From positions 1 through 29,871 of the forward strand of contig JAQUYY010000001.1 of NCBI GenBank assembly GCA_028691575.1: 29,871 nt of DNA. The letters run 5' to 3'. Below the pieces are notes generated by a model. It was given only the letters and a program-made list of their open reading frames with translations, did no database searches and had not been told where the DNA came from. The DNA comes from Candidatus Gastranaerophilales bacterium (lineage in GTDB: Bacteria; Cyanobacteriota; Vampirovibrionia; Gastranaerophilales; JAQUYY01). Below are positions 2,965-29,583 of this stretch, piece by piece (within the stretch, counting starts at the first letter, position 1; every line of letters begins with the position of its first letter). Position numbers and translations under genes: made by a program.

Positions 2965-4485
2965 ATGTTTGAAAATATACGGTACGAGTATTCGGTAAAA
3001 ACCTGCTCAAATCAAGATCCGGAAAATTTGGAAGATTTATTAAATACAATGGCTGCAGAGGGTTGGAATTTATATACTATAAATGAAGTAGAAGCACCAA
3101 CCAGCGGTTTTCAGTACAGCTGTATATTTCAAAGAGAATTTGATGAGAACAAAAGCAAAAAAATAGAAATTGCCGATATTCAGGATTTTAAAAGCAAAAT
3201 GGAAAAAATGCTCCACCCGTCTGATAAACCTTACGAAGAATGTATGGAAATTCAATCTCAAATAAACGAGCATCAACAAAAAGTCAATAAAATAAAACTT
3301 CAGCTCGATAAAACTTCCAATGACATTGACAGAGACAGGCTAAACCGCGAAATGTCTAATTATTTAGCGGAAATCAATTCGTTAAAAAGCAAGTTGGCTG
3401 AAGTTATTTCGCCAAATCGTATGTATGAAAATATTTATCAGGATAAACTCATAATTTTGCTGAGCTATGAGCTTACAGACCTTGTAAATACTGAAAAAGG
3501 AGGAGAGTTAATCTCCCAAACCGTTAAGCTGCGTCAAAAAATTTCTGAAAACTTGGGGTATGTTATTCCTGCCATCAAATTTGCCGTTAACGAGGAATTG
3601 GGCGATAATGAATACGAAATAAAAGTTCGAGGAGCAAAAATCCTCTCCGGCTGTGTTTACCCCGGATTTTCAAGATATTATGCAGGACAGTCAAACATTA
3701 ACAGAAAACCTAAAAATGCAATCGAAGAATATGATTTTATAAAACAGAAAAAAACGTTCTGGATAGAAAAATCTAAAACAAAAAATTTCTGGGAAAAAGG
3801 ACTCTCCCCTGCCGAAGTCATATCTAAAAACCTGGAATACGTTGTTTGCAAGTGTGCTGACCAGCTTTTAGACTATTCTGATATTAATAATTATATTGAA
3901 ATAGTCGGAACTCAAAATTTCTTTTTGGTCGAAACTCTTGTGGCAGACCACTTAACAATCGGCGAAATTCGTGCGATTTTAGCTAAATTAATCGAAGAAA
4001 AAATTTCAATAAAGGATATTGTTTATATTTTTGAAAAATTGACAGATTTCGCTCAAATATTAAAAACCAGCATCGAGGGAGAAGAGGTAACAATTTTAGA
4101 TATCAAAGAAATGCTGAAAAACTTAAGAAAAGCTCTGAAAATGCAAATTTGCAATTCAATCGCAGATAGCAACGGCACAATATATGCAATAACTTTATCT
4201 GACAAAACGGCTATTATGCTTGAAAAAGAGCTGCAAAAAGATAAATTGTATTACGATAATCCTAAAATTAAATCTTTTATTAATAAAATCCTAAAAATAA
4301 TTGAAACTAACGAATTGGAAACCAAACATACAGCACTTGTTGCACCAAATTCAATAAGAAGAAAAATGTTCCGGCTTATAGAAAACTTTATTCCTGAACT
4401 TGCCGTAATAGCCAAAACAGAGCTTTCGGGCGAATTTTCTATTGATATAATAGAAGAAATCGGTTCAAAAAACGGAGAAGAATAA
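2965..4485 (+). CDS. DUF4177-like N-terminus, coiled coil and FlhA/FHIPEP cytoplasmic-domain-like region, with no transmembrane domain
   Basis: YEY...LEDLLNTMAAEGW resembles DUF4177. LLSYELTDLV..EKGGELI...LRQKISENLGYVIPAIKFAVNEELGDNEYEIKVRG resembles FlhA-C (LEIGYGLIPLV..GGDLL.RI..IRR..A.ELG.VVP.IRIRDN..L..NEYVIKIKG). Confidence 0.7.
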   Translation: MFENIRYEYSVKTCSNQDPENLEDLLNTMAAEGWNLYTINEVEAPTSGFQYSCIFQREFDENKSKKIEIADIQDFKSKMEKMLHPSDKPYEECMEIQSQINEHQQKVNKIKLQLDKTSNDIDRDRLNREMSNYLAEINSLKSKLAEVISPNRMYENIYQDKLIILLSYELTDLVNTEKGGELISQTVKLRQKISENLGYVIPAIKFAVNEELGDNEYEIKVRGAKILSGCVYPGFSRYYAGQSNINRKPKNAIEEYDFIKQKKTFWIEKSKTKNFWEKGLSPAEVISKNLEYVVCKCADQLLDYSDINNYIEIVGTQNFFLVETLVADHLTIGEIRAILAKLIEEKISIKDIVYIFEKLTDFAQILKTSIEGEEVTILDIKEMLKNLRKALKMQICNSIADSNGTIYAITLSDKTAIMLEKELQKDKLYYDNPKIKSFINKILKIIETNELETKHTALVAPNSIRRKMFRLIENFIPELAVIAKTELSGEFSIDIIEEIGSKNGEE

Positions 4486-4898: not shown

Positions 4899-5609
4899 CT
4901 ACTCGTACAAGTATTTTGCAGAACAGCCTGAACCGGTATTTGTGGATGCTGTTGAACTCTCTATGCAAGTTGTTGACGGGTCATTAATTCCTCTTGCTCC
5001 ATGTGGAATTAATGAATTTAAAGTTAAATTCATATAAAAAATATCTTTTCCTACTGTATTCGGTTTTTTAAATCCATTTACATCTACATTTATATATCCG
5101 CATCTTGTATAATCTCCTACCGGAGAACTGCAATTTGATTTGTCAACATTAAACCTGATTAAACTGCCATTATTTAATATTAAACCGCCTTGATATTGAT
5201 TACTTATACTTGTACCATTTAAATAGAACCAGTCTACACCTGCATGCCAACATCCATCAGCACTTACTCCGTTACCCGATCCTCCATAGGTAGAAGTTCC
5301 TGAACAATCTTTTATAATATTTAATTTTGATGCAAAAGCATTTTTTAAATCTTCACTTCCTGCTAAATCCCCAGGAAAAGCTCCGGCTAAAGTTCCGCCG
5401 TTATCAACAACTAATAATTGTGTAACTTGAGATAAATCAGAATATGACTTTTTCCACGCTGCTTTTAATTCTGCATCGCTTGTCGTACCAAATAACATCG
5501 GTGTAACTATTGAGGCAATTATTCCGATTATTGCAATAACAATTAATGTTTCTGCTAAAGTAAACGCTGTATATCTTTTAGATCTTGTTAACGCTTTTTG
5601 ATTTTTCAT
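4899..5609 (-). CDS. Type IV pilin-like protein (prepilin N-terminal cleavage/methylation domain), paralogue A
   Basis: Basic leader, A|FTLAETLIVIAIIGIIASIVTPMLFG, DVNGFKKPNTVGKDIF motif, 6 Cys. Confidence 0.88.
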   Translation of the reverse strand: MKNQKALTRSKRYTAFTLAETLIVIAIIGIIASIVTPMLFGTTSDAELKAAWKKSYSDLSQVTQLLVVDNGGTLAGAFPGDLAGSEDLKNAFASKLNIIKDCSGTSTYGGSGNGVSADGCWHAGVDWFYLNGTSISNQYQGGLILNNGSLIRFNVDKSNCSSPVGDYTRCGYINVDVNGFKKPNTVGKDIFYMNLTLNSLIPHGARGINDPSTTCIESSTASTNTGSGCSAKYLYE

Positions 5610-5626
5610 ACTTTTTTTTCTCCAAT

Positions 5627-6319
5627 TTATTCATACAAATACTTTGCAGAACAGCCATGACCTGTATTAGTTGTTGCAGTTGAACCTTCTATGCATCTTG
5701 TTGATATCGTATAAAAATTTCGTGCACCATATGGTATTAATGAATTTGAGGTTATACTTGCTACAAATATATCTTTTCCTACTGTATTCGGTTTTTTAAA
5801 TCCGTTTACATCTATATATAAATGAGCACATCTTGTATAATCTCCCGCAGAAGAACTGCAATCCGATTTGTTAACCTGAAACCACATAAGACTCCCATTA
5901 TTTAATATTAATCCGGGAAGAGAAGCACCTCCTCCCGTATCGTTGCCATTTAAGTAATACCAGCTGTTTGCTCCTACATGCCAACAACCTTCTGCACTTG
6001 AACCACTTCCGGTTCCTCCAAATGCAGATGTTCCGGAACAATCTTTTATAATATTTAATTTTGATGCAAAAGCATTTTTTAAATCTTCACTTCCTAAAAC
6101 ATCCTCTGTAAATGCTCCGGCTAAACTTCCGCCGTTGTCTGCAACTATCATCATTGTTGCCTGAGCAAGGTCTGAATATTCTTTTTTCCATTTTGCTTTT
6201 AGTTCCGCATCGCTTGTAGTACCAAATAACATCGGTGTAACTATTGAAGCAATAATTCCGATTATTGCAATCACTATTAATGTTTCTGCTAAAGTAAACG
6301 CTGTATAAGGCTTTTTCAT
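5627..6319 (-). CDS. Type IV pilin-like protein, paralogue B (tandem with A)
   Basis: A|FTLAE class III signal, same motifs and Cys pattern as A; GAGG SD upstream. Confidence 0.88.
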   Translation of the reverse strand: MKKPYTAFTLAETLIVIAIIGIIASIVTPMLFGTTSDAELKAKWKKEYSDLAQATMMIVADNGGSLAGAFTEDVLGSEDLKNAFASKLNIIKDCSGTSAFGGTGSGSSAEGCWHVGANSWYYLNGNDTGGGASLPGLILNNGSLMWFQVNKSDCSSSAGDYTRCAHLYIDVNGFKKPNTVGKDIFVASITSNSLIPYGARNFYTISTRCIEGSTATTNTGHGCSAKYLYE

Positions 6320-8703: not shown

Positions 8704-8928
8704 ATGAATAAATCTATTTCCTATTTAACCTACTTCCTTATAATAATAGGTGCCCTAAACTGGGGATTGGTAGGATTTTTTGGATTTGATTTGGTTGCTT
8801 TTTTATTCGGAGATATGACTTTAACAAGCAGAATAATTTATTCTCTGGTTGGAATATCAGCTGTAATAAGTCTTATTTACGAATTTACATCTGAAAAAAC
8901 AGAAAAAAGCACTCAATCAAGCCATTAA
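8704..8928 (+). CDS. DUF378 (YuzA-like) small membrane protein
   Basis: LIIIGALNWGLVGFFGFDLVAFLFG...RIIYSLVGISA; AAGGAG SD. Confidence 0.88.
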   Translation: MNKSISYLTYFLIIIGALNWGLVGFFGFDLVAFLFGDMTLTSRIIYSLVGISAVISLIYEFTSEKTEKSTQSSH

Positions 8929-8935
8929 AACACTA

Positions 8936-8964
8936 AAAAGAGGTCAATTAAAAGACCTCTTTTT
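8936..8964 (+). terminator. Intrinsic, possibly bidirectional terminator
   Basis: AAAAGAGGTC-aattaaaa-GACCTCTTTT-T, a perfect 10-bp stem. Confidence 0.8.
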
Positions 8965-9090
8965 AGTATGCCAATTATTTTTTAAAAAATACTAGCATTT
9001 TTTTATTTCTTTTGCTACAATACTTTTTGTATCCTTGCTAAAATAGTTTATACCGATTTCAATAAGTAAACATTAAATAAATCAATCTTT

Positions 9091-9252
9091 TTAAATCGGT
9101 ATGAGTGAGTTGGGAGAGAAACCTCGGCAGAGAGTGAAACGGAAACGAAGAGTTTTCGCTGGAACTCGTTTAACGCCAAGCGTTTCAAGACAGCGACGTT
9201 TAAAAAAACCATGCACGTTGCTTTTCTTTAAAACTAGCTCATTCTGGTTTGG
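9091..9252 (+). ncRNA. Candidate structured RNA (rod-like, 6S-like architecture) or MITE-like element
   Basis: Ends pair (AAATCGGtATGAGtgAGTT with AACTagCTCATtCTGGTTT, including G-U pairs on the + strand); inner helices AAACG/CGTTT, TCGCTG/CAGCGA and AACGC/GCGTT; A-rich central bulge; GC above background. Family identity not established. Confidence 0.4.
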
Positions 9253-9268
9253 CAAAAATACAACAAGT

Positions 9269-9354
9269 GCCGGAGTGGCGAAATCGGTAGACGCAGTGGA
9301 CTCAAAATCCACCGAGGTTCACCCCTCGTGTCGGTTCGAGTCCGACCTTCGGCA
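9269..9354 (+). tRNA. tRNA-Leu (anticodon CAA)
   Basis: Acceptor GCCGGAG/CTTCGGC-A; D-loop with GG; anticodon arm GTGGA-CT-CAA-AA-TCCAC; long variable arm; T-loop GGTTCGAGTCC; CCA not encoded. Confidence 0.95.
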
Positions 9355-9436
9355 TTTTTATCCAGATTTTAAAATTGAAACAAAACTATTTTTATTTCGT
9401 CTGTAAATACAGTCTTGAACATTGAAAATTAAATAT

Positions 9437-9839
9437 GGGGACGTTTTGGATTAGACAGGGCGATTGGTAGAATCAAACTGCGGGTCGGAGCGCTGTTCTT
9501 CGTTATCAACGAGCAACAAACAATAAATGGCAACAACGTCATTAAAGCTGACTTCGGCAGAGCTGCTGCTCTAGCTGCGTAGACAAACTTACGTATCAGC
9601 CACTGTACAATTTTTGACGATTGAATTGTATAGTCACTTCAAATCGAATGCTCTTAGTGTATGAAAGTAAGCTAAGATAAGATTTTCTTTCAAGGTCAGG
9701 CATGACTTTAAAAATGCTTAATTTTGGTTAAGGTTACGGTTTTTAATCATGCCAAAATGAAATCAATTAAAAACCTACACTCGTAGACGTTTGCTTGTAT
9801 CCGTTTTGGACGAGAGTTCGAATCTCTCCGTCTCCACCA
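9437..9839 (+). ncRNA. ssrA: tmRNA; tag ORF 9529-9582 encodes (A)GNNVIKADFGRAAALAA*
   Basis: 5' GGGGACG pairs with 3' CGTCTCC-ACCA including G3-U; T-arm GAGAG-TTCGAAT-CTCTC; resume context ATAAAT|GGC; tag ends in LAA. Confidence 0.95.
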
Positions 9840-11284
9840 TTTTTTAAATTAGCACTTTTGAACACAGGTTTGAAGGTGCTTTTTAGTTCTATGATTATAT
9901 TTTCACCATCGTAAGAAAAGTTCGAACACAGTAAATTTAATAATTTCCTTTTTTCTTCAACTGATTGGTTTAGATATAAGCTATAAGCATCTTTACAGAC
10001 TTTCAAAACAAGTTCTGCTTTATTTATAAAAGTTCTACTATCATTAAGCCTTGCTCTGTATTTTATTTCATATTCATCAATTTTTCTTTGCCAATCGTGT
10101 GAATTTTCAAAATAAAAATCTTCATCAATAATGCCGTCAATTTTATCCAAATACAATTTGTTTAAACGGTTTCTATATTTATCTATTTGTTGCAAGATAT
10201 GTTTTATTGAATGATTTTCATATTTATTTTTGAGTGCATACATTTCTTTAATTATTGAAATAACTTCTTTTATATCTTCTTCTGAAATATAAATGCCTTG
10301 CAAAATAGCAAAAACCGCATTGTCAATATGTTCTTGTTTTAAATATTTTCTTTTACAATCACCGCCTTTATTTCCTGTGCAGTGATAATAAATATATTTG
10401 CCTTTTTTAATTTCAGCAGTTAAATAACAGCCGCATTTAGAGCATTTAATCAAGTTTGTATATGTAAACTCGTGCTTTATTGTTTTGGGGCTTGTATGGG
10501 CTTCTCGTTGCTGCTGTACTGCATAAAAAAGTTCTTTAGTTATCAATGGTTCATGTTTACCAATAAACCTTTTGCCATTCCAATTAAATTCACCCATATA
10601 AAATGGATTATTAAAAGTTTTTTCAATTAATATCTTTGAACAAGGTTTTCTATTATATGAAAAGCCCTCTGAAGCAAGTTTTGTTGCCAATGTTTTAAAA
10701 GAATATGCACCTGTTGAATATAGTTCAAAAGCCTTTTTAACAAATGGTGCAGCAGTTTCATCTATTATAATTGTTCTTCTGCCATTCTCTTGGATAATAT
10801 TTTTATATCCAACCGGGGCTTTGCCGGGGAAGAACCCTTGTTCTGATTTTTCTTTTAATCCTTTACTGATTTCTTCAGAAAGATTGTCAATATAATTTTT
10901 AGCCATTAACACCCGGATGCCGTGCATAAATTTATCTTGGCTTTTTGAATTGTCGCTTAAAATAGTTCCTTCTTTTACAAAGTGAATTTCAACACCGTCA
11001 AGGTCATCAAGAGTAACATAATCTTTTAAATTTCTATAAAGTCTATCAGTCTTTTCTACAAGAATTGTTTTGATAGACTTATTTTTTTTGAGAAATTTCA
11101 CCATTTCAGTGAATTGTTTTCTGCCTGAAGTTTTTGCTGTTTCTGCTTCAACAAATTGAGAAACTATTTTTAAATTCTGTTTTACGGCATATTCTTTAAG
11201 CAGTTTAATTTGAGCAGGTATTGAAAAACCTTCTCTTTCTTGTTCTTTGCTTGATACTCTTGCATATAAAACTACTTGCTGCAT
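9767..11284 (-). CDS. Large serine recombinase (integrase); last ~24 codons antisense to the tmRNA 3' end
   Basis: YARVSSKEQ (catalytic Ser), EAETAK, LVEKTDRLYRN, GKAPVGYKN, recombinase domain GKHEPLIT, zinc ribbon CSKCG...YYHC, coiled coil. Confidence 0.93.
   Translation of the reverse strand: MQQVVLYARVSSKEQEREGFSIPAQIKLLKEYAVKQNLKIVSQFVEAETAKTSGRKQFTEMVKFLKKNKSIKTILVEKTDRLYRNLKDYVTLDDLDGVEIHFVKEGTILSDNSKSQDKFMHGIRVLMAKNYIDNLSEEISKGLKEKSEQGFFPGKAPVGYKNIIQENGRRTIIIDETAAPFVKKAFELYSTGAYSFKTLATKLASEGFSYNRKPCSKILIEKTFNNPFYMGEFNWNGKRFIGKHEPLITKELFYAVQQQREAHTSPKTIKHEFTYTNLIKCSKCGCYLTAEIKKGKYIYYHCTGNKGGDCKRKYLKQEHIDNAVFAILQGIYISEEDIKEVISIIKEMYALKNKYENHSIKHILQQIDKYRNRLNKLYLDKIDGIIDEDFYFENSHDWQRKIDEYEIKYRARLNDSRTFINKAELVLKVCKDAYSLYLNQSVEEKRKLLNLLCSNFSYDGENIIIELKSTFKPVFKSANLKNGGDGEIRTLVQNGYKQTSTSVGF
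9851..9884 (+). terminator. tmRNA terminator lying inside the antisense recombinase ORF
   Basis: AGCACTTTTGAAC-acag-GTTTGAAGGTGCT (13 bp with G-U pairs) followed by a T tract. Confidence 0.7.
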
Positions 11285-11287
11285 CTA

Positions 11288-12115
11288 TTATTTACTTTCT
11301 GCTATATTTAAATCTTCTTTAAAGAATGAAATATTTAAAATCTTCTTATCATCAACATATTTTGAACGATTTTTGTGTAAAAAACTTATAATATCTTTGC
11401 TTGTTATAAATAGTTCAGTTGCAGAAATTAGTGTATAATTTTTAATTTCTTCATCAAGCAAATTATTTTCTCTGGCTAGCCTAAGTAAAACATTTTTGTT
11501 TGATTTCTTTGGAAACTTTATTTCTGCAAGTTTCAAAATTTTTATTAGTTCATCTTTTGTAAAATAAATTTTTTCCAAAAAATCATCAACACTTAATGGG
11601 TGAAATTTAATAAATTTCAATTTTTCAAGATTGTTTAAAAGTTCATCATTTTTTGCGAAAAATAAATTATATAGACTTTTTCTTGATAACTGCATAAATT
11701 CGTACAATTCATAAATCCTATAATTTGAAACAAGTGGTTCAAATTGTGTCAATTCCTCAATATCACTTTGGATAAGCCCATGAATATTTTGAATAGATTC
11801 ATCAACAATATCTTTATTTAAGTACATTACTTTTGCATATTCCTTGAACTTATCTTTATACGGAATTTCTTTGCTATTTTTAACCTCAATAGCTTGAATT
11901 AATTTAGGTAAAAAATTAGGGGCTTTTTCTTTCAATAGTTCAAAATTATTATGTATTAAAGAAATTAAATGCTTACAAAGTTGTTTTTTCCCACCTGCCG
12001 GGCAAGTGCAAACAACACAACTATCAAATATATAAACTTCATATTCATTATTGGAAGTTTTGCTTTTTACCTTTTGGCTAACTAAAAGGTTATTTGGAGT
12101 AAGTTTTTCAGTCAT
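11288..12115 (-). CDS. SWIM zinc-finger protein with a possible C-terminal SAP/HeH-like motif
   Basis: YEVYIFDSCVVCTCPAGGKKQLCKHL (CxC-x9-CxH); FTKDELIKILKLAEIKFPKKSNKNVLLRLA. Confidence 0.65.
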   Translation of the reverse strand: MTEKLTPNNLLVSQKVKSKTSNNEYEVYIFDSCVVCTCPAGGKKQLCKHLISLIHNNFELLKEKAPNFLPKLIQAIEVKNSKEIPYKDKFKEYAKVMYLNKDIVDESIQNIHGLIQSDIEELTQFEPLVSNYRIYELYEFMQLSRKSLYNLFFAKNDELLNNLEKLKFIKFHPLSVDDFLEKIYFTKDELIKILKLAEIKFPKKSNKNVLLRLARENNLLDEEIKNYTLISATELFITSKDIISFLHKNRSKYVDDKKILNISFFKEDLNIAESK

Positions 12116-12190: not shown

Positions 12191-12403
12191 CTACAAATCT
12201 TTAAATAAACTTTCAAGAGGGTAATTAAGAGCTTTAGCAACTTCAGCAAGATTGCAAATGCCAATATTTAACTCCCCTCTTTCAAGAAGTCCAATATATG
12301 TTCTGTGAGAGCCTGCAAGTTCAGCCAACTTTTCTTGGCTAAGTCCTTGTTTCTTTCTTTCAGCAGCTATTCTTCTACCAATTATTTTCCTTAAATCTTT
12401 CAT
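12191..12403 (-). CDS. XRE-family HTH regulator (controller C-protein-like)
   Basis: RKKQGLSQEKLAELAGSHRTYIGLLERGELNIGICNLAEVAKAL. Confidence 0.85.
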   Translation of the reverse strand: MKDLRKIIGRRIAAERKKQGLSQEKLAELAGSHRTYIGLLERGELNIGICNLAEVAKALNYPLESLFKDL

Positions 12404-12562
12404 ATAGCAATAATAAAAGCTATAAAAATTTTATCTACACCAAATTTATGCCCATGCGTGGCATGTGATACTGACTAGGTGTTGAAAATTGCCATATGAA
12501 AAAAATTTAAAACCCTACCGATTACTTTATATAAATGTAATAGTTTTTAGAAGGAATGTAAA

Positions 12563-12673
12563 ATGACACAAGAAGACATTTGTAAAATCTACGAAGCACT
12601 ACTTATTGCGTATCCAAAAGAGGCAAGAGTTATTTTATTACGTCTGTTAAACCGTATTCGTGCAGTAAATTAA
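12563..12673 (+). CDS. Candidate 36-aa small protein MTQEDICKIYEALLIAYPKEARVILLRLLNRIRAVN
   Basis: AAGGA SD upstream of ATG 12563; TAA at 12671-12673; below the ORF-track cutoff; convergent overlap with the cI-like gene. Confidence 0.4.
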   Translation: MTQEDICKIYEALLIAYPKEARVILLRLLNRIRAVN

Positions 12674-12944
12674 CAACTTCTGCTTTAATTATTCCCTTGA
12701 ATTCGTCGCTAACATTAGCGGCGTTTTCTTTTATGAACATATCCCCTTTGTTTATAAGAAGCCAATTAATGTTTAAATTGTATATTGTCGCAAGCTTAAC
12801 CAAATTTTCATTACTAAGATTGTTTTTATCTTTTTCAACCTTTGTTATAGAAGGTCCTGCAATCCCCAAAGAATTTGCCAAATCTGCTTGAGATAACCTC
12901 AATGTTTCTCTAAACTCTTTTAATCTACTTCCTTGTGTTGACAA
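12630..12944 (-). CDS. cI-like XRE HTH repressor (short, no peptidase domain)
   Basis: RLKEFRETLRLSQADLANSLGIAGPSITKVEKDK...LNINWLLINKGDMF; GAGG SD before TTG. Confidence 0.82.
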   Translation of the reverse strand: MSTQGSRLKEFRETLRLSQADLANSLGIAGPSITKVEKDKNNLSNENLVKLATIYNLNINWLLINKGDMFIKENAANVSDEFKGIIKAEVVNLLHEYGLTDVIK

Positions 12945-12982
12945 TGTTTAAGCCTCTTATTGTTAAGAAATGTAAAATAATA

Positions 12983-13024
12983 CTGCCCTTTGAGTTGCAA
13001 AAATTGCCTAGTGGGTAGTATAGT
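12983..13024 (+). promoter_or_regulatory. Rightward promoter with two candidate operators
   Basis: TTGCAA (12995-13000), N18, TATAGT (13019-13024); imperfect palindromes CTGCCCT-T-TGAGTTG (12983-12997) and TTGCCTA-G-TGGGTAG (13004-13018). Confidence 0.45.
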
Positions 13025-13121
13025 GATTACATAATTAAATCAGTAAGATATTAACACGGCATTGATGTCAATTCAATTCATCAGTTGGTCTAAGCCGTGT
13101 GGACAATTAAAAGGAAGAAGG

Positions 13122-13322
13122 ATGTTGAAAAAGAGAATTGAAAAAATCAAAGAAGCTTTAAAAAAAGAAGGTATCTCACAGGGTGATATTGCAAGAGAAT
13201 TAAGCATCACCTCACACGCTGTTTGGTTTTGGGTGCACGGCAGAATGTCATCAAAAAACATAACAGAATGGTTCAGAAACAGATTTGGGGAAGAGTTCTT
13301 AAAAGAAATAGAACTTAACTAA
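13122..13322 (+). CDS. Cro-like HTH protein (likely start ATG 13122)
   Basis: IKEALKKEGISQGDIARELSITSHAVWFWVHG; AAGG SD; divergent from the cI-like gene. Confidence 0.75.
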   Translation: MLKKRIEKIKEALKKEGISQGDIARELSITSHAVWFWVHGRMSSKNITEWFRNRFGEEFLKEIELN

Positions 13323-13575: not shown

Positions 13576-14192
13576 ACGGCAAGAACTGTTGAGCGTATAA
13601 GGGATATTAATGAATTTGTTGAAGCAACTTCTGTAAAAGAAAGAATTTTAGCTTGTTTAGCAATATTTATTAAAAAATTAGTTCCCGGAACAGGAATTGG
13701 AAGAAATACCCCTGTTAATAAAGATATTTCAACAGGATACAGCACACAAAAACTTGCACCCGGAATGATTAATGAATTGCAACCGGGGGATGATATTTCT
13801 GTTGTAAATCCTTCAGGACAAGCAAGCAATGCAAAAGATTTTATATCAACACAGCAACGTTTGATTGGAAGCGGTCAAGGCTTGAGTTATGAAGCTGTAT
13901 CAAGGGATATGTCGCAAGTCAATTATTCTTCTGCACGTCAAGGGCTTCTTGAAGATATAAGAACCTATAAAATGATGCAGAAATATTTAATAGAACATCT
14001 TTGCAAAATTGTTTACAGGGAATTTGTTACAGCTGCGGTTTTATCGGGCAAACTCAATATACCTGACTTTTTCAGCAATAAAGAAAGATATTTAAGGCAC
14101 TCTTGGATAACACCGGGATGGGATTGGATTGACCCGTTAAAAGAAGCAAAAGCCAATGAAGTGGCACTTAACACTGGTCAAACAAACCTTTG
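13576..14192 (+). pseudogene. Lambda-family phage portal protein, internal fragment truncated at both ends
   Basis: Frame opens after TAA 13573-13575: RIRDINEFVEATSVKERILACLAIFIKK...LQPGDDI...LSYEAVSRDMSQVNYSSARQGLLE...WITPGWDWIDPLKEAKA. Confidence 0.85.
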
Positions 14193-14408
14193 CTGATTTC
14201 TTCAGAAAGATTGTCAATATAATTTTTAGCCATTAACACCCGGATACCGTGCATAAATTTATCTTGGCTTTTTGAATTATCGCTTAAAACGGTTCCTTCT
14301 TTTACAAAGTGAATTTCAACACCGTCAAGGTCATCAAGAGTAACATAATCCTTTAAGTTTCTATAAAGTCTATCAGTCTTTTCTACAAGAATTGTTTTGA
14401 TAGACTTA
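14193..14408 (-). pseudogene. Fragment of a second, sibling serine recombinase
   Basis: 216 bp matching 10866-11081 with 6 mismatches, same orientation. Confidence 0.92.
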
Positions 14409-14684
14409 GAAGCTGTCTGGTCAAAAACATTTTTTAAGGGTAACCCATATCATTGCTATCCTTACAACATTTTCTGCTGTTAAAGTTAAGATTTCAAAGT
14501 CTTTTGATGCTCTCCTGAAATTATTAATCCAGGCAAAAGTCCTCTCCACTATCCATCTTTTGGGCAAAATAGCAAATTCATCTTTAACTCTCATTGATAT
14601 ATGTATAAATTTTTTTAAAATATTCTGTACATAATCTACAGATGTGCCTCTATAACCTGCATCGGCAGAAAATGCTTTTATAGT
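14409..14684 (-). mobile_element. IS5-family (IS1031-like) remnant: transposase C-terminus (14421-14684) and one end
   Basis: Manual translation TIKAFSADAGYRG...LPKRWIVERTFAWINNFRRASKDFE...TLKKCF*; terminus GAAGCTGTCTGG directly after a TTA target. Confidence 0.82.
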
Positions 14685-18331: not shown

Positions 18332-19057
18332 TTATTCAGCTTTGCAAGTTCCTGTTGTATAATCTATATCATCACAATATAAGGCTAATTTTGAACAGTG
18401 TTGTCCCAGATTAGCACTGGTTGATGTAGAATCTTCAAGGCAAGAATATGTTCCGGGGGCGCTCGGATCTGAGTTCCAACCATGTACTTTGACTATTCCG
18501 TTAGGACGCCCACCACAATAAAAAATATCTTTTCCCTGCATATTAGGCTTTTTAGAACCATTTACATCTACTCCAAAATAAACCAATTGACAATCGGCTG
18601 ATCCGTCGACACATCTGTTTCTGACAGCACCAATTCTCACATAAGCTCCATTTGATAGTATCGCAGTATATTGTACAGAAAAATTACTATTTATTTCTGT
18701 TCCATTTAAAGTAAAATATTCGCCAACTTCGTGCCAACAAGGATTGTCGGTTGTTTCTGTTGCAGAAGAGGGACCTTTTTTTATGTAATTCATTTTTTCC
18801 AAAAGGAGATTACCAAAAGTATTATCTAATTCACTGCTATTACCCTCTGCTGTAAAAACACCGTTTAAAGTACCTCCATGATCTAAAGATGCAAGCCTCC
18901 AAGCCTGCGAAATATCTGCATAAGATTTTTTCCATTTTGCGATATTTTCAGCGTTGTTTGTTGTACCAAACAACATCGGCGTTACGATGGAGGCAATTAT
19001 CCCGATTATAGCAATTACTATTAATGTTTCTGCCAGCGTAAAGCCAAGTTTTTTCAT
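18332..19057 (-). CDS. Type IV pilin-like protein, paralogue D
   Basis: MKKLG|FTLAETLIVIAIIGIIASIVTPMLFG; DVNGSKKPNMQGKDIF; Cys-rich C-terminus. Confidence 0.88.
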   Translation of the reverse strand: MKKLGFTLAETLIVIAIIGIIASIVTPMLFGTTNNAENIAKWKKSYADISQAWRLASLDHGGTLNGVFTAEGNSSELDNTFGNLLLEKMNYIKKGPSSATETTDNPCWHEVGEYFTLNGTEINSNFSVQYTAILSNGAYVRIGAVRNRCVDGSADCQLVYFGVDVNGSKKPNMQGKDIFYCGGRPNGIVKVHGWNSDPSAPGTYSCLEDSTSTSANLGQHCSKLALYCDDIDYTTGTCKAE

Positions 19058-22998: not shown

Positions 22999-23718
22999 AT
23001 GTTAAAGCGAATGCAGCAATCAAATAATAAATTTGTAAGAAAGCTAGGATTTACTTTAGCAGAAACTCTTATTGTAATAGCAATAATCGGAATAATAGCC
23101 TCAATAGTAACGCCAATGTTGTTTGGCACGACAAGCGATGCTGAACTAAAAGCAGCATGGAAAAAGTCGTATTCTGATTTATCACAAGCAACAATGATGA
23201 TTGTAGCTGATAACGGAGGAACTTTAGCAGGCGCATTCCCTGGAGATGGAGCAGGAGCCGAAGATTTGAAAAATGCTTATGCTTCTAAATTAAACATAAT
23301 AAAAGATTGCTCAGGTACTTCTACCTATGGAGGAACCGGATCAGGAGTAGCGGCGGAAGGTTGTTGGCATTTATATGATGCTTGGTATTTTTTAAATGGG
23401 ACAACAACCGGTTGGACTCAATCTTTTCCCGGTTTGATTCTAAATAATGGAAGTTTAATATATTTTATTCTTAATAAGTCTGATTGTAGTTCTTCCAGAG
23501 GAGATTATGAACGATGTGCGGAAATATATTTGGATGTAAATGGTTTTAAAAAGCCTAATATAATAGGTAAAGATATATTTGTAATGTCAATAACTTCAAA
23601 TGCATTAATACCGTTAGGTGCAAGAGGAGATCTTGAACCATCAATAACATGTGTGGAAGGTTCTACAGCTACTGATAATTATGGTTATGGCTGTTCGGCG
23701 AAGTATCTGTATGAATAA
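22999..23718 (+). CDS. Type IV pilin-like protein, paralogue C (close to A and B)
   Basis: RKLG|FTLAE...; DVNGFKKPNIIGKDIF; ends GCSAKYLYE like A and B; AAGGAG SD. Confidence 0.88.
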   Translation: MLKRMQQSNNKFVRKLGFTLAETLIVIAIIGIIASIVTPMLFGTTSDAELKAAWKKSYSDLSQATMMIVADNGGTLAGAFPGDGAGAEDLKNAYASKLNIIKDCSGTSTYGGTGSGVAAEGCWHLYDAWYFLNGTTTGWTQSFPGLILNNGSLIYFILNKSDCSSSRGDYERCAEIYLDVNGFKKPNIIGKDIFVMSITSNALIPLGARGDLEPSITCVEGSTATDNYGYGCSAKYLYE

Positions 23719-25826: not shown

Positions 25827-26501
25827 TTATTTAATTGCTCCTGAGTTAATTAATTCTTTTACTCTTTCCTTAATTTGATTGTGAATTGTATTAATAGTCA
25901 AATTTCCATCAATAGTTATAAAATTAAATTCATGAGCCATTTTTGAATATTCTTCTAAAATTCTTGCTTGATAAATTTTAAAACTTTTATAAAAATCTGT
26001 ACTTAGTCCGATGTCTCTTCCTGATTCATAATAATCCAGTCCTGTTGTGGCAATAATTCTTTTCATCAATGCTTTTACAGGCATATCTAAATAAAAAACA
26101 ATATCGGGAGTCGGTGCAAAATTGTACAAATTTCTTACCCATCCGGGTTTTACCCCTCTTACAACGTCTCTTGCATAGGCAGTATAAGTATATCTATCCA
26201 TTAAAACAATCAAACCCGCTTTAAGTGCCGGGATTATATTTTTTTCAAGCCTATCGGTAAAATCACTGGCGTACAAAAGGCTAAAAGTGTTGGCATTTAA
26301 TAAATTCTTTTCTTTTGCCTGATCAATAGCGCCTGAAATAAGTGCAGAAGTTTTCCATTCGCTAACCATTGCACCGTAACTTTCAACAGCAAGCCAATCT
26401 TTTAATTTATTAATTTGAGTGGATTTTCCAGAACCGTCTGTGCCTTCAATTACAATTAACAATCCGGGATATTCATGTTTTTTTGTATAATTGTTTGTCA
26501 T
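25827..26501 (-). CDS. Thymidylate-kinase-like P-loop kinase, subunit 2 of a tandem pair
   Basis: EGTDGSGKST, SEWKTS, DRYTYTAYARDVVRG, YESGRD. Confidence 0.85.
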   Translation of the reverse strand: MTNNYTKKHEYPGLLIVIEGTDGSGKSTQINKLKDWLAVESYGAMVSEWKTSALISGAIDQAKEKNLLNANTFSLLYASDFTDRLEKNIIPALKAGLIVLMDRYTYTAYARDVVRGVKPGWVRNLYNFAPTPDIVFYLDMPVKALMKRIIATTGLDYYESGRDIGLSTDFYKSFKIYQARILEEYSKMAHEFNFITIDGNLTINTIHNQIKERVKELINSGAIK

Positions 26502-27173
26502 TTATATACTGCACCCTTTTTCTTCAAGTTTTTTTCTTACGATATCTCTAAAAATTACCTGCTGCTCATGTACTGTATTTGTTGCATCTATTTTTATAAG
26601 ATTATATTCATCAACCATTTTATCGTATTCTTCTATAACTCTGTTTTGAAAAATTTTATAACTTTCATATGGATCGGGATTTAAATTTAAGTCCATGCCT
26701 GATTCATAGAATTTTGGCTGTCTGTTAGAACAAATTCTTTCTAAAGAAACTTCAACCGGAACACTAAAATACATTGATAAATCAGGTTTTATGGCAAACC
26801 CGTAAGTATTTCTTACCCATTCAGGCTGAACTCCTCTTGCAACATCTCTTGCAAAAGCAGTAAAAGCATATCTGTCAGACAAAACAATAAATCCGGCTTT
26901 TAGAGCAGGTACAATAACCTGTTCTAACCTATCAGCAAAATCTACGGCATGAAGAAGGCTAAAAGTTCTCGGGCTAAGCATATTTTTCTTTTTAGCTCTT
27001 TTGGTTGTTTGAGAAATCAGCTTAGAAGAATTCCATTCTGTAAAAATAACATCTTGCCCGATATTCTGAAGCCAATCTCTTAATATAGCAAGCTGAGTTG
27101 ACTTGCCGGAGCCGTCAATTCCTTCAACCACTATTAATGTGCCGGGTAAGTCATGATTTTGGTTTAAACGCAT
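26502..27173 (-). CDS. Thymidylate-kinase-like P-loop kinase, subunit 1 of a tandem pair
   Basis: EGIDGSGKST, TEWNSS, DRYAFTAFARDVARG, YESGMD; TAA-ATG junction with the next gene (0-bp gap). Confidence 0.85.
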   Translation of the reverse strand: MRLNQNHDLPGTLIVVEGIDGSGKSTQLAILRDWLQNIGQDVIFTEWNSSKLISQTTKRAKKKNMLSPRTFSLLHAVDFADRLEQVIVPALKAGFIVLSDRYAFTAFARDVARGVQPEWVRNTYGFAIKPDLSMYFSVPVEVSLERICSNRQPKFYESGMDLNLNPDPYESYKIFQNRVIEEYDKMVDEYNLIKIDATNTVHEQQVIFRDIVRKKLEEKGCSI

Positions 27174-28851: not shown

Positions 28852-29583
28852 TTATCGATTTGTAATCCAGGAAGTATTATAGCAAGGCGGACTCATGCAC
28901 CTTGAATACGCAGTATTAATTACAGTATTAAAATCAGGCTGAGGCAATATTTTAATTTGATCGCCAATAACACACGACGAGTCATCTGCAAAACCTAAAA
29001 CGCTATAATCACCTATGTTACAGTTTTTTGTAACAGTTTGCAGAAAAAATCTGTCTTTACCGTACTTATTAGGTTTTTTTAAACCGTTTGTATCGAGAAA
29101 TATTCCATCATTAGCAACAAAAGCAGGATGCATCAATGCCCAACTTCTGCCGGCATTATCTATAAATCCCGGCCAATCACTTGTAGGAGCTCCCCCATGT
29201 TCATGCACTCCATCATAAAGGAAACCTTCATAAATATCTCCGCCGCTGGAATCCCAACATTCTGATAAACTAGAATCTCCTGTATTAATATTGCACGTTT
29301 TTATAACATTAAATTTATTTGCAAAATTTATAAAATTACTTTCTGCTGAAGTCATTGAACCAGTCACAGAAGTTATGCCAATAAGATCTCTATCGGTAAC
29401 TACTTGCATCCAGGCAATTGATGCATCGGCATAAGCTTTTTTATAGGCTGCTTTATATTCTGCATCATTTGTTGAACCAAATAACATTGGCGTAACAATT
29501 GATGCAATTATTCCAATTATTGCAATTACAATTAATGTTTCAGCTAATGTAAAGGCTGATTTTTTCATTTCAAACATTTCCAA
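28852..29583 (-). CDS. Type IV pilin-like protein, paralogue E (start could instead be ATG 29577 or 29568)
   Basis: MKKSA|FTLAETLIVIAIIGIIASIVTPMLFG; DTNGLKKPNKYGKDRF. Confidence 0.87.
   Translation of the reverse strand: MEMFEMKKSAFTLAETLIVIAIIGIIASIVTPMLFGSTNDAEYKAAYKKAYADASIAWMQVVTDRDLIGITSVTGSMTSAESNFINFANKFNVIKTCNINTGDSSLSECWDSSGGDIYEGFLYDGVHEHGGAPTSDWPGFIDNAGRSWALMHPAFVANDGIFLDTNGLKKPNKYGKDRFFLQTVTKNCNIGDYSVLGFADDSSCVIGDQIKILPQPDFNTVINTAYSRCMSPPCYNTSWITNR

Follow-up and report, generated by a model that had tools for sequence, protein, structure and literature searches.

Our analysis points to the 3' end of the tmRNA gene in the window (the whole 29,871-nucleotide stretch of DNA analysed) as the attL junction of a decayed prophage, whose integrase belongs to a clade of serine integrases that target tRNA and tmRNA genes and that may carry, in a detachable C-terminal tail, a cis-acting control of recombination direction, a reading to which we assign a probability of roughly 55%. 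Relatives show that attP lies inside the integrase gene, such that the free phage encodes a conserved tail and the inserted phage a junk tail.

Results

The integrase gene ends inside the tmRNA gene

The large serine integrase gene, present in its attL (integrated) form, occupies positions 9767 to 11284 of the minus strand and encodes 505 residues. It matches the Pfam families PF00239, PF07508 and PF13408, retains the catalytic S11 and all four zinc-binding cysteines, and shows the resolvase catalytic domain with a serine nucleophile, the recombinase domain and the zinc ribbon with coiled coil of large serine integrases; its closest homologue is L226 (66%). The integration target is the tmRNA (ssrA) gene on the plus strand at 9437 to 9839, called by ARAGORN and by Rfam (135.6 bits), and no credible Rfam match to an RNA family was found in 8900-9440. 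As the preliminary description had noted, the integrase frame meets no stop before the tmRNA, shares 73 nt with it and terminates at 9767; both the ORF and its C-terminal peptide were confirmed. By analogy with the attL/attR pairs of relatives, which we used to place the junction, residues 1-484 would be encoded by the element and residues 485-505 by the antisense strand of the host tmRNA. The host-derived junk tail, 21 codons and a stop on the tmRNA antisense strand (9767 to 9833, minus strand), forms the B arm of attL. The putative crossover core, CCA at 9834 to 9836 of the plus strand (TGG on the integrase strand), spans the discriminator and the two final bases of the acceptor stem and is spaced as in relatives' att pairs. 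The T-loop GTTCGA at 9816 to 9821 (plus strand) is the likely motif for the zinc-ribbon domain in the B half-site, with a spacing to the core (15 nt to TGG) that matches relatives, whose P arms also carry a GTTCGA-type T-loop motif, 5 bp further out.

Read-through into the RNA gene is a family trait

The length of the overlap is unremarkable, because the antisense tmRNA 3' ends of relatives are commonly that open (median 65 nt, with at least 73 nt in 41% of frames), and selection on the 73-nt read-through was rejected on this ground. That the frame meets no stop ahead of the RNA gene is characteristic of the family and not a matter of chance. Among 145 homologous loci (closed, non-redundant, taken from genomes, viruses and metagenomes, the window included), the integrase ORF terminates within an opposite-strand tRNA or tmRNA at 108, with overlaps mostly of 10-105 nt, and at most one stops before the RNA gene, so the concern that homologues might stop before the att site does not hold. 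The targets at the 108 loci comprise 12 tRNA types and, in 12 loci, tmRNA. What the antisense RNA encodes is passive, variable and unconstrained junk; tails range from 1 to over 60 residues among homologues. This corrects the earlier idea that the tmRNA-encoded C-terminus is put to use.

Two truncated relatives of the integrase were observed in the same genome. One, 5'-truncated (C167:405-1186), enters tRNA-Asp and has a similar terminator hairpin in its last codons; the other (C36:59-689) enters tRNA-Glu, with no clear terminator seen. Elsewhere, two near-identical integrases lie at tRNA-Leu in one record (L111) and at tmRNA in the other (L112), and one enzyme seems to accept different RNA genes.

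Two classes of tail are exchanged by recombination in relatives

The comparison of C-termini suggested by the preliminary description separates two tail classes among 120 protein homologues: an antisense T-arm signature marks the tails of 53 proteins, and another 54 carry long tails of a different kind, with a median length of 34 residues; the remaining 13 stop almost immediately. Alanine is the last residue in 48 of the 54 non-antisense long tails, whereas the antisense class has it in one of 53 and the ORFs of this genome in 3.7%, with classes assigned blind to the last residue and the proteins being kin and not independent samples; the Ala-ended tails finish in CA (the commonest), AA, IA or VA. 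Viral records hold Ala-ended tails with no RNA gene near the stop, and at L227 phage genes directly follow the integrase stop. This is the pattern to be expected of excised forms.

The integrated relatives supply the missing tail. At the far end of ten of them, about 5-35 kb from the integrase, a tail profile locates an orphan tail of ~28-38 codons, preceded by a stop and lying behind a 3-9-bp core (E 1e-5 to 1e-11). Of 20 loci examined with the profile, which was built from Ala-ended tails and is hence biased toward them, 10 yielded a tail, nine as an orphan and one in a circle; L040 brings the orphans to ten. When attL and attR were aligned, a 5-bp shift between the T-loop motif and its counterpart in the element arm yielded the longest shared core in all ten pairs; this offset is the published mark that distinguishes attP from attB in serine integrases (PMC3783163). 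The cores, of 3-9 bp, all contain TGG, which is complementary to the discriminator and the two acceptor-stem bases before it, and rejoining attL and attR at the core opens a frame into the tail in the ten pairs. A short core with the attP zinc-ribbon motif 5 bp outward is found in the pairs of these ten relatives, and the window shows the B arm only. Cores of this size also run against the possibility that the element carries at least 73 bp of tmRNA identity. Moreover, one phage is found both as a circle with the tail joined and as a prophage with the tail split: G044, a record with terminal repeats, carries the joined integrase gene, and in its sibling, the prophage L119/L133, the integrase (L119) stops after three glycines in tRNA-Ala and an identical tail lies 34 kb away. 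The earlier claim that attP lies within the integrase gene and that the C-terminal tail depends on the state of the DNA is thus borne out by ten attL/attR pairs and one circle/prophage pair in relatives; for the copy in the window, where attR and tail were not detected, the swap is putative.

Differences among the tails fall at the third codon position in 47 cases, versus 28 and 18 at the other two, and 40 codon changes are non-synonymous versus 28. At its start the attP tail shows SN, L/FEL or RT, three translations of a single DNA motif that depend on the frame in which the gene crosses the core.

The tail is predicted to pack where RDFs bind

AlphaFold2 modelling of P0005, a homologue 57% identical to the window integrase, gave a disordered linker followed by tail helices at 489-501 and 506-518 (pLDDT about 78-81). 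Predicted as a complex, its body and tail scored 0.68 against 0.02 for the best control, on a mark reached by 58 of 80 solved pairs and 2 of 110 mismatched pairs; the runs agreed in at least 86% of contacts, with a partner pLDDT of at least 78. Segments cut from a single chain, as body and tail are, tend to pass, and structures of integrase-RDF complexes have been solved, so that we read the prediction as indicating a plausible packing site rather than binding. The predicted contacts on P0005 fall at 336-351, 418-428, 450 and 467-479; on the tail side they include 496, 499, 512 and 515, and the last two tail residues lie within the interface. In an HMM alignment of ~18% identity, 336-351 and 418-428 map onto the SPbeta inter-hinge segments 380-401 and 468-479, and in this distant alignment the SPbeta hinges fall at about 332/350 (outgoing) and 416/427 (returning) of P0005. 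The SPbeta RDF restrains the inter-hinge segments (PMC11722253), prediction places all known RDFs at this coiled-coil-base junction, and it has been suggested that in other integrases the RDF site is blocked by an extension of the C-terminus (PMC12286644); engineered C-terminal integrase-RDF fusions at this site switch direction, favouring excision (PMC11722253, PMC12286644). On these models, the attP tail is predicted to be a two-helix hairpin that packs against the zinc-ribbon domain and the pair of inter-hinge helices at the coiled-coil base, where RDFs bind.

The integrase codons contain a probable terminator for the tmRNA

An intrinsic-terminator-like hairpin with a T tract, which would replace the displaced host terminator, lies inside the integrase codons at 9851 to 9884 of the plus strand. 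The 13-bp hairpin and T tract that the preliminary description had placed just after the tmRNA CCA are indeed present: the stem (9851-9880) has 13 pairs, four of them G-C, the T tract extends to 9884, and the structure, listed on the plus strand only, has an MFE of -15.4 kcal/mol and a z of -4.4 against shuffles. A stable, structurally conserved hairpin and U tract follow the RNA 3' end, as in an intrinsic terminator. Terminator-like sites within 75 nt behind the RNA occur at 53 of 103 integrated loci (which are not independent), versus 117 of 1648 control windows (7%) drawn from other, same-strand positions in these genes. In the window's subclade, represented by 12 distinct sequences, 87% of cells pair and changes occur on both sides in 7 of the 13 pairs, a figure matched by 12 of 500 shuffles, while slid controls give 1-4, a comparison in which the hairpin has the advantage that its structure was derived from the window sequence. 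The residues encoded by the hairpin change together with the compensatory base changes, and from this covariation the hairpin appears to be under selection.

In eight of the nine pairs with flank, inspected by eye, a hairpin and T tract stand directly behind the displaced core at attR, and in empty relatives they stand right behind the tmRNA. The integrated host RNA gene loses its own terminator because the latter moves with the displaced core to attR. The earlier proposal that the element supplies the host tmRNA terminator gains from the covariation and the enrichment, but the feature is found in only about half of the family. As a universal feature it was rejected, since the tmRNA-targeting subclade L032/L033/L036/L037/L062/L112/L150 has none in our scan. 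The sequence TTTGAAC in the hairpin was tried as a symmetric P'-arm motif and rejected, as its spacing to the core does not fit and it is absent in L112.

The element in the window is probably stranded

Directly upstream of the integrase, three bases from its start, is a 275-aa ORF of unknown family (11288 to 12115, minus strand), with no Pfam or PHROG hit; it has a CxC...CxH motif near its N-terminus, which we take to be SWIM-like. A phage immunity region follows at 12191 to 13322, with two HTH genes on the minus strand and a divergent Cro-like gene on the plus strand, and then the 3' fragment of a lambda-type portal gene (13765 to 14196, plus strand). Next, integrase codons about 68-143 recur as a 225-bp duplicate at 96% (14184 to 14408, minus strand), left behind by a rearrangement or by another, related element. 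The recognisable element ends in the 3' remnant of a transposase, presumably IS5-like by its motif (14410 to 14680, minus strand), where no attR was found and beyond which the genes are of host type. The host is probably a member of Gastranaerophilales, the order to which the closest named genomes belong. Logan contigs of one run, probably the source sample, match the window's layout in long pieces without differences and at even depth, and one of them spans the portal/duplicate junction; no attP or empty-site junction was found among the contigs of that run, in which rare variants are dropped.

Searches of the window and the genome by blastn, k-mers, a repeat finder and the tail HMM found no attR or tail for this element, and neither did a motif-plus-open-frame scan for attR that recovers 13 of 17 known sites. 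An ssrA direct repeat was not found at the right boundary and may have been deleted; the boundary itself is approximate, because crcB does not adjoin tmRNA in relatives. An attR-like site with the core ATGGTGG on C283 was rejected as the partner, its tail being open in a different frame and on another contig. This site (C283:171-389, minus strand) holds a decayed orphan tail behind ATGGTGG, beside a hairpin resembling the ones that follow tmRNA in L002 and L020, and is possibly a junction of stacked elements. The window captures the attL junction of a decayed prophage that has lost its right end and is probably stranded, with excision unlikely; what the junction still contributes is probably the coded terminator.

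Discussion

The mechanism that we propose is a cycle in which recombination edits the recombinase. The attP site would lie about 35 codons before the end of the integrase gene, and crossover would occur at the CCA of acceptor stem and discriminator, as in relatives. Integration would cause the integrase to read into antisense RNA and would leave attR with both the host terminator and the true tail, whereas excision would rejoin the tail to the integrase, both outcomes being seen in relatives. In the enzyme encoded by the circle, the RDF site would be occupied by the tail, committing it to attP x attB; the tail-less enzyme encoded by the prophage would have a free RDF site and would be the form that excises. 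The terminal alanine may, in addition, make the circle form protease-labile. We favour a blocking role because integration is the task of the circle form and excision that of the prophage form, although the direction of the effect is argued purely from this logic and the excision-favouring RDF fusions point the opposite way. The tail swap could then be a built-in in/out switch. The broader proposition, that a widespread clade carries directionality control in its own tail at the RDF site, with recombination adding and removing it so that each DNA state encodes the enzyme for the next reaction, is a tentative one that we judge somewhat likelier to be wrong than right.

Other roles for the tail would account for parts of these data. 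It may be a degradation tag, ssrA-like or of the basic-xA type, making the circle form short-lived and limiting lysogeny, with integration yielding a stable enzyme. The skew in terminal alanine among the tail classes is what such a tag would leave, host tmRNA tags end in AA, and a tag lost on integration, with a stable protein left behind, has a precedent in the repressor and integrase of integration-dependent-immunity mycobacteriophages (PMC9262239). A bare tag, however, would need a few residues, whereas this tail has about 35 and contains two conserved amphipathic helices; its last two residues belong to the predicted interface, and CA, the commonest ending, differs from the canonical AA, so that we consider this role unlikely. 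Alternatively, the tail may be part of the fold, and its loss would serve as a 'suicidal' off-switch that cripples the integrated form and leaves excision to a rare event or to an enzyme acting in trans. The predicted packing of the tail on the body would agree with this, dead remnants are frequent, with two in this genome (C167 and C36), and precedents exist in the suicidal integrases of archaea (PMC8371274) and in a suggestion made for DsiB (PMC3146451). However, the catalytic region, the recombinase region, the zinc ribbon and the coiled coil, all of which align to solved integrases, are retained in the tail-less form, and the phage found as both prophage and circle is most easily explained by an integrated form that excises, which makes a crippled enzyme distinctly unlikely.

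We give little credence to a tail that acts as a built-in RDF, blocking re-integration in the circle form or translated from the orphan copy at attR as a small RDF. The predicted tail site does match the RDF site, C-terminal RDF fusions switch direction (PMC12286644), and in some cases (L132, L134, L135) the orphan tail has an ATG close to the core; yet an incoming phage could then integrate only after losing its tail, and several orphan tails have no start codon (L133, L141, L142, L040). Scarcely credible, finally, is neutral compaction, in which attP merely overlaps a dispensable C-terminus and both forms behave alike: the lack of constraint on antisense tails and the many non-synonymous tail changes (40 vs 28 codons) would suit it, but the orphan tails at prophage ends stay open, helical and Ala-ended while being usable only after excision.

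The Int protein of the Myxococcus phage Mx8 is a tyrosine recombinase. The attP of this phage lies inside int, and integration gives a new 3' end that alters rather than abolishes activity (PMC6070905). The location of attP within the integrase gene is shared by our relatives and would be shared by the window, but the present enzymes are serine recombinases, whose cores span 3-9 bp and whose control system is of the coiled-coil/RDF type. In archaea, 'suicidal' tyrosine integrases of the SSV type likewise combine an att site inside the integrase gene with tRNA targets, but their split detaches the catalytic part, whereas here only about 35 C-terminal residues are lost; self-disrupting recombinases were called exclusive to archaea in the same review (PMC8371274). 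C-terminal swapping is thus established for the Mx8 and archaeal tyrosine integrases (PMC6070905, PMC8371274). In the mycobacteriophage BPs, the gene that is cut is the repressor, the integrase is of the tyrosine type and the core is 35 bp (PMC9262239); unlike in integration-dependent immunity, the HTH genes of the window lie over 2 kb from the crossover site, with attP outside the repressor.

The nearest precedent is the Dehalococcoides DsiB, a serine recombinase whose gene was reported in 2011 to overlap attL at ssrA, with regulation suggested (PMC3146451). The overlap and the regulatory idea are already published for DsiB, in the paper to which the preliminary description alluded, and the window gene resembles it in overlapping attL at the ssrA 3' end. 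The DsiB islands have a six-gene module (dsiA, RecF-like, ParB-like, mom-like), where the window has an unknown ORF, HTH/Cro genes and a portal fragment, and they are ssrA islands, unlike the clade studied here, which also targets at least 12 tRNA types. The part of the paper available to us mentions divergent C-termini; a conserved attP tail, terminal alanine, 5-bp shift or coded terminator is not described there. The SPbeta and LI/A118 integrases share with this clade their domain order and fold, the 5-bp attP/attB shift and a control site at the coiled-coil base (PMC11722253, PMC3783163, PMC12286644), but their control element is a separate protein, whereas the candidate here is the enzyme's own tail, added and removed by its recombination. 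Outside subscription journals, which our search did not cover, we found no paper other than PMC3146451 on serine integrases spanning attP, and none on the conserved attP tail, the terminal alanine, the predicted site or the coded terminator.

How direction is controlled in serine integrases without an obvious RDF is an open question on which this clade bears; 24 integrases were left without an RDF in a study that suggested C-terminal extensions (PMC12286644). The clade offers a natural, genetically encoded pair with and without the tail, the tail being predicted at the RDF site. Members mined from chromosomes carry the junk tail, and their behaviour in screens for tools may differ. According to Islander, tRNA genes are not known targets of serine integrases, the main text of Durrant 2022 mentions neither tRNA nor tmRNA, and with cores of 3-9 bp these elements escape island finders that search for tRNA fragments. 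Intact relatives (L117/L119, L112, L033) are better experimental systems than the copy in the window.

Other features of the window

Five ORFs with a prepilin-type N-methylation signal are scattered through the window (4899-6319, 18332-19057, 22999-23718, 28852-29583), and two thymidylate-kinase-family genes stand in tandem at 25827-27173. A 506-aa protein encoded at 2965-4485 has a C-terminal FHIPEP (FlhA-like) match and a different N-terminus, and near it lies a gene for a XerC/D-like tyrosine recombinase (1658-2548).
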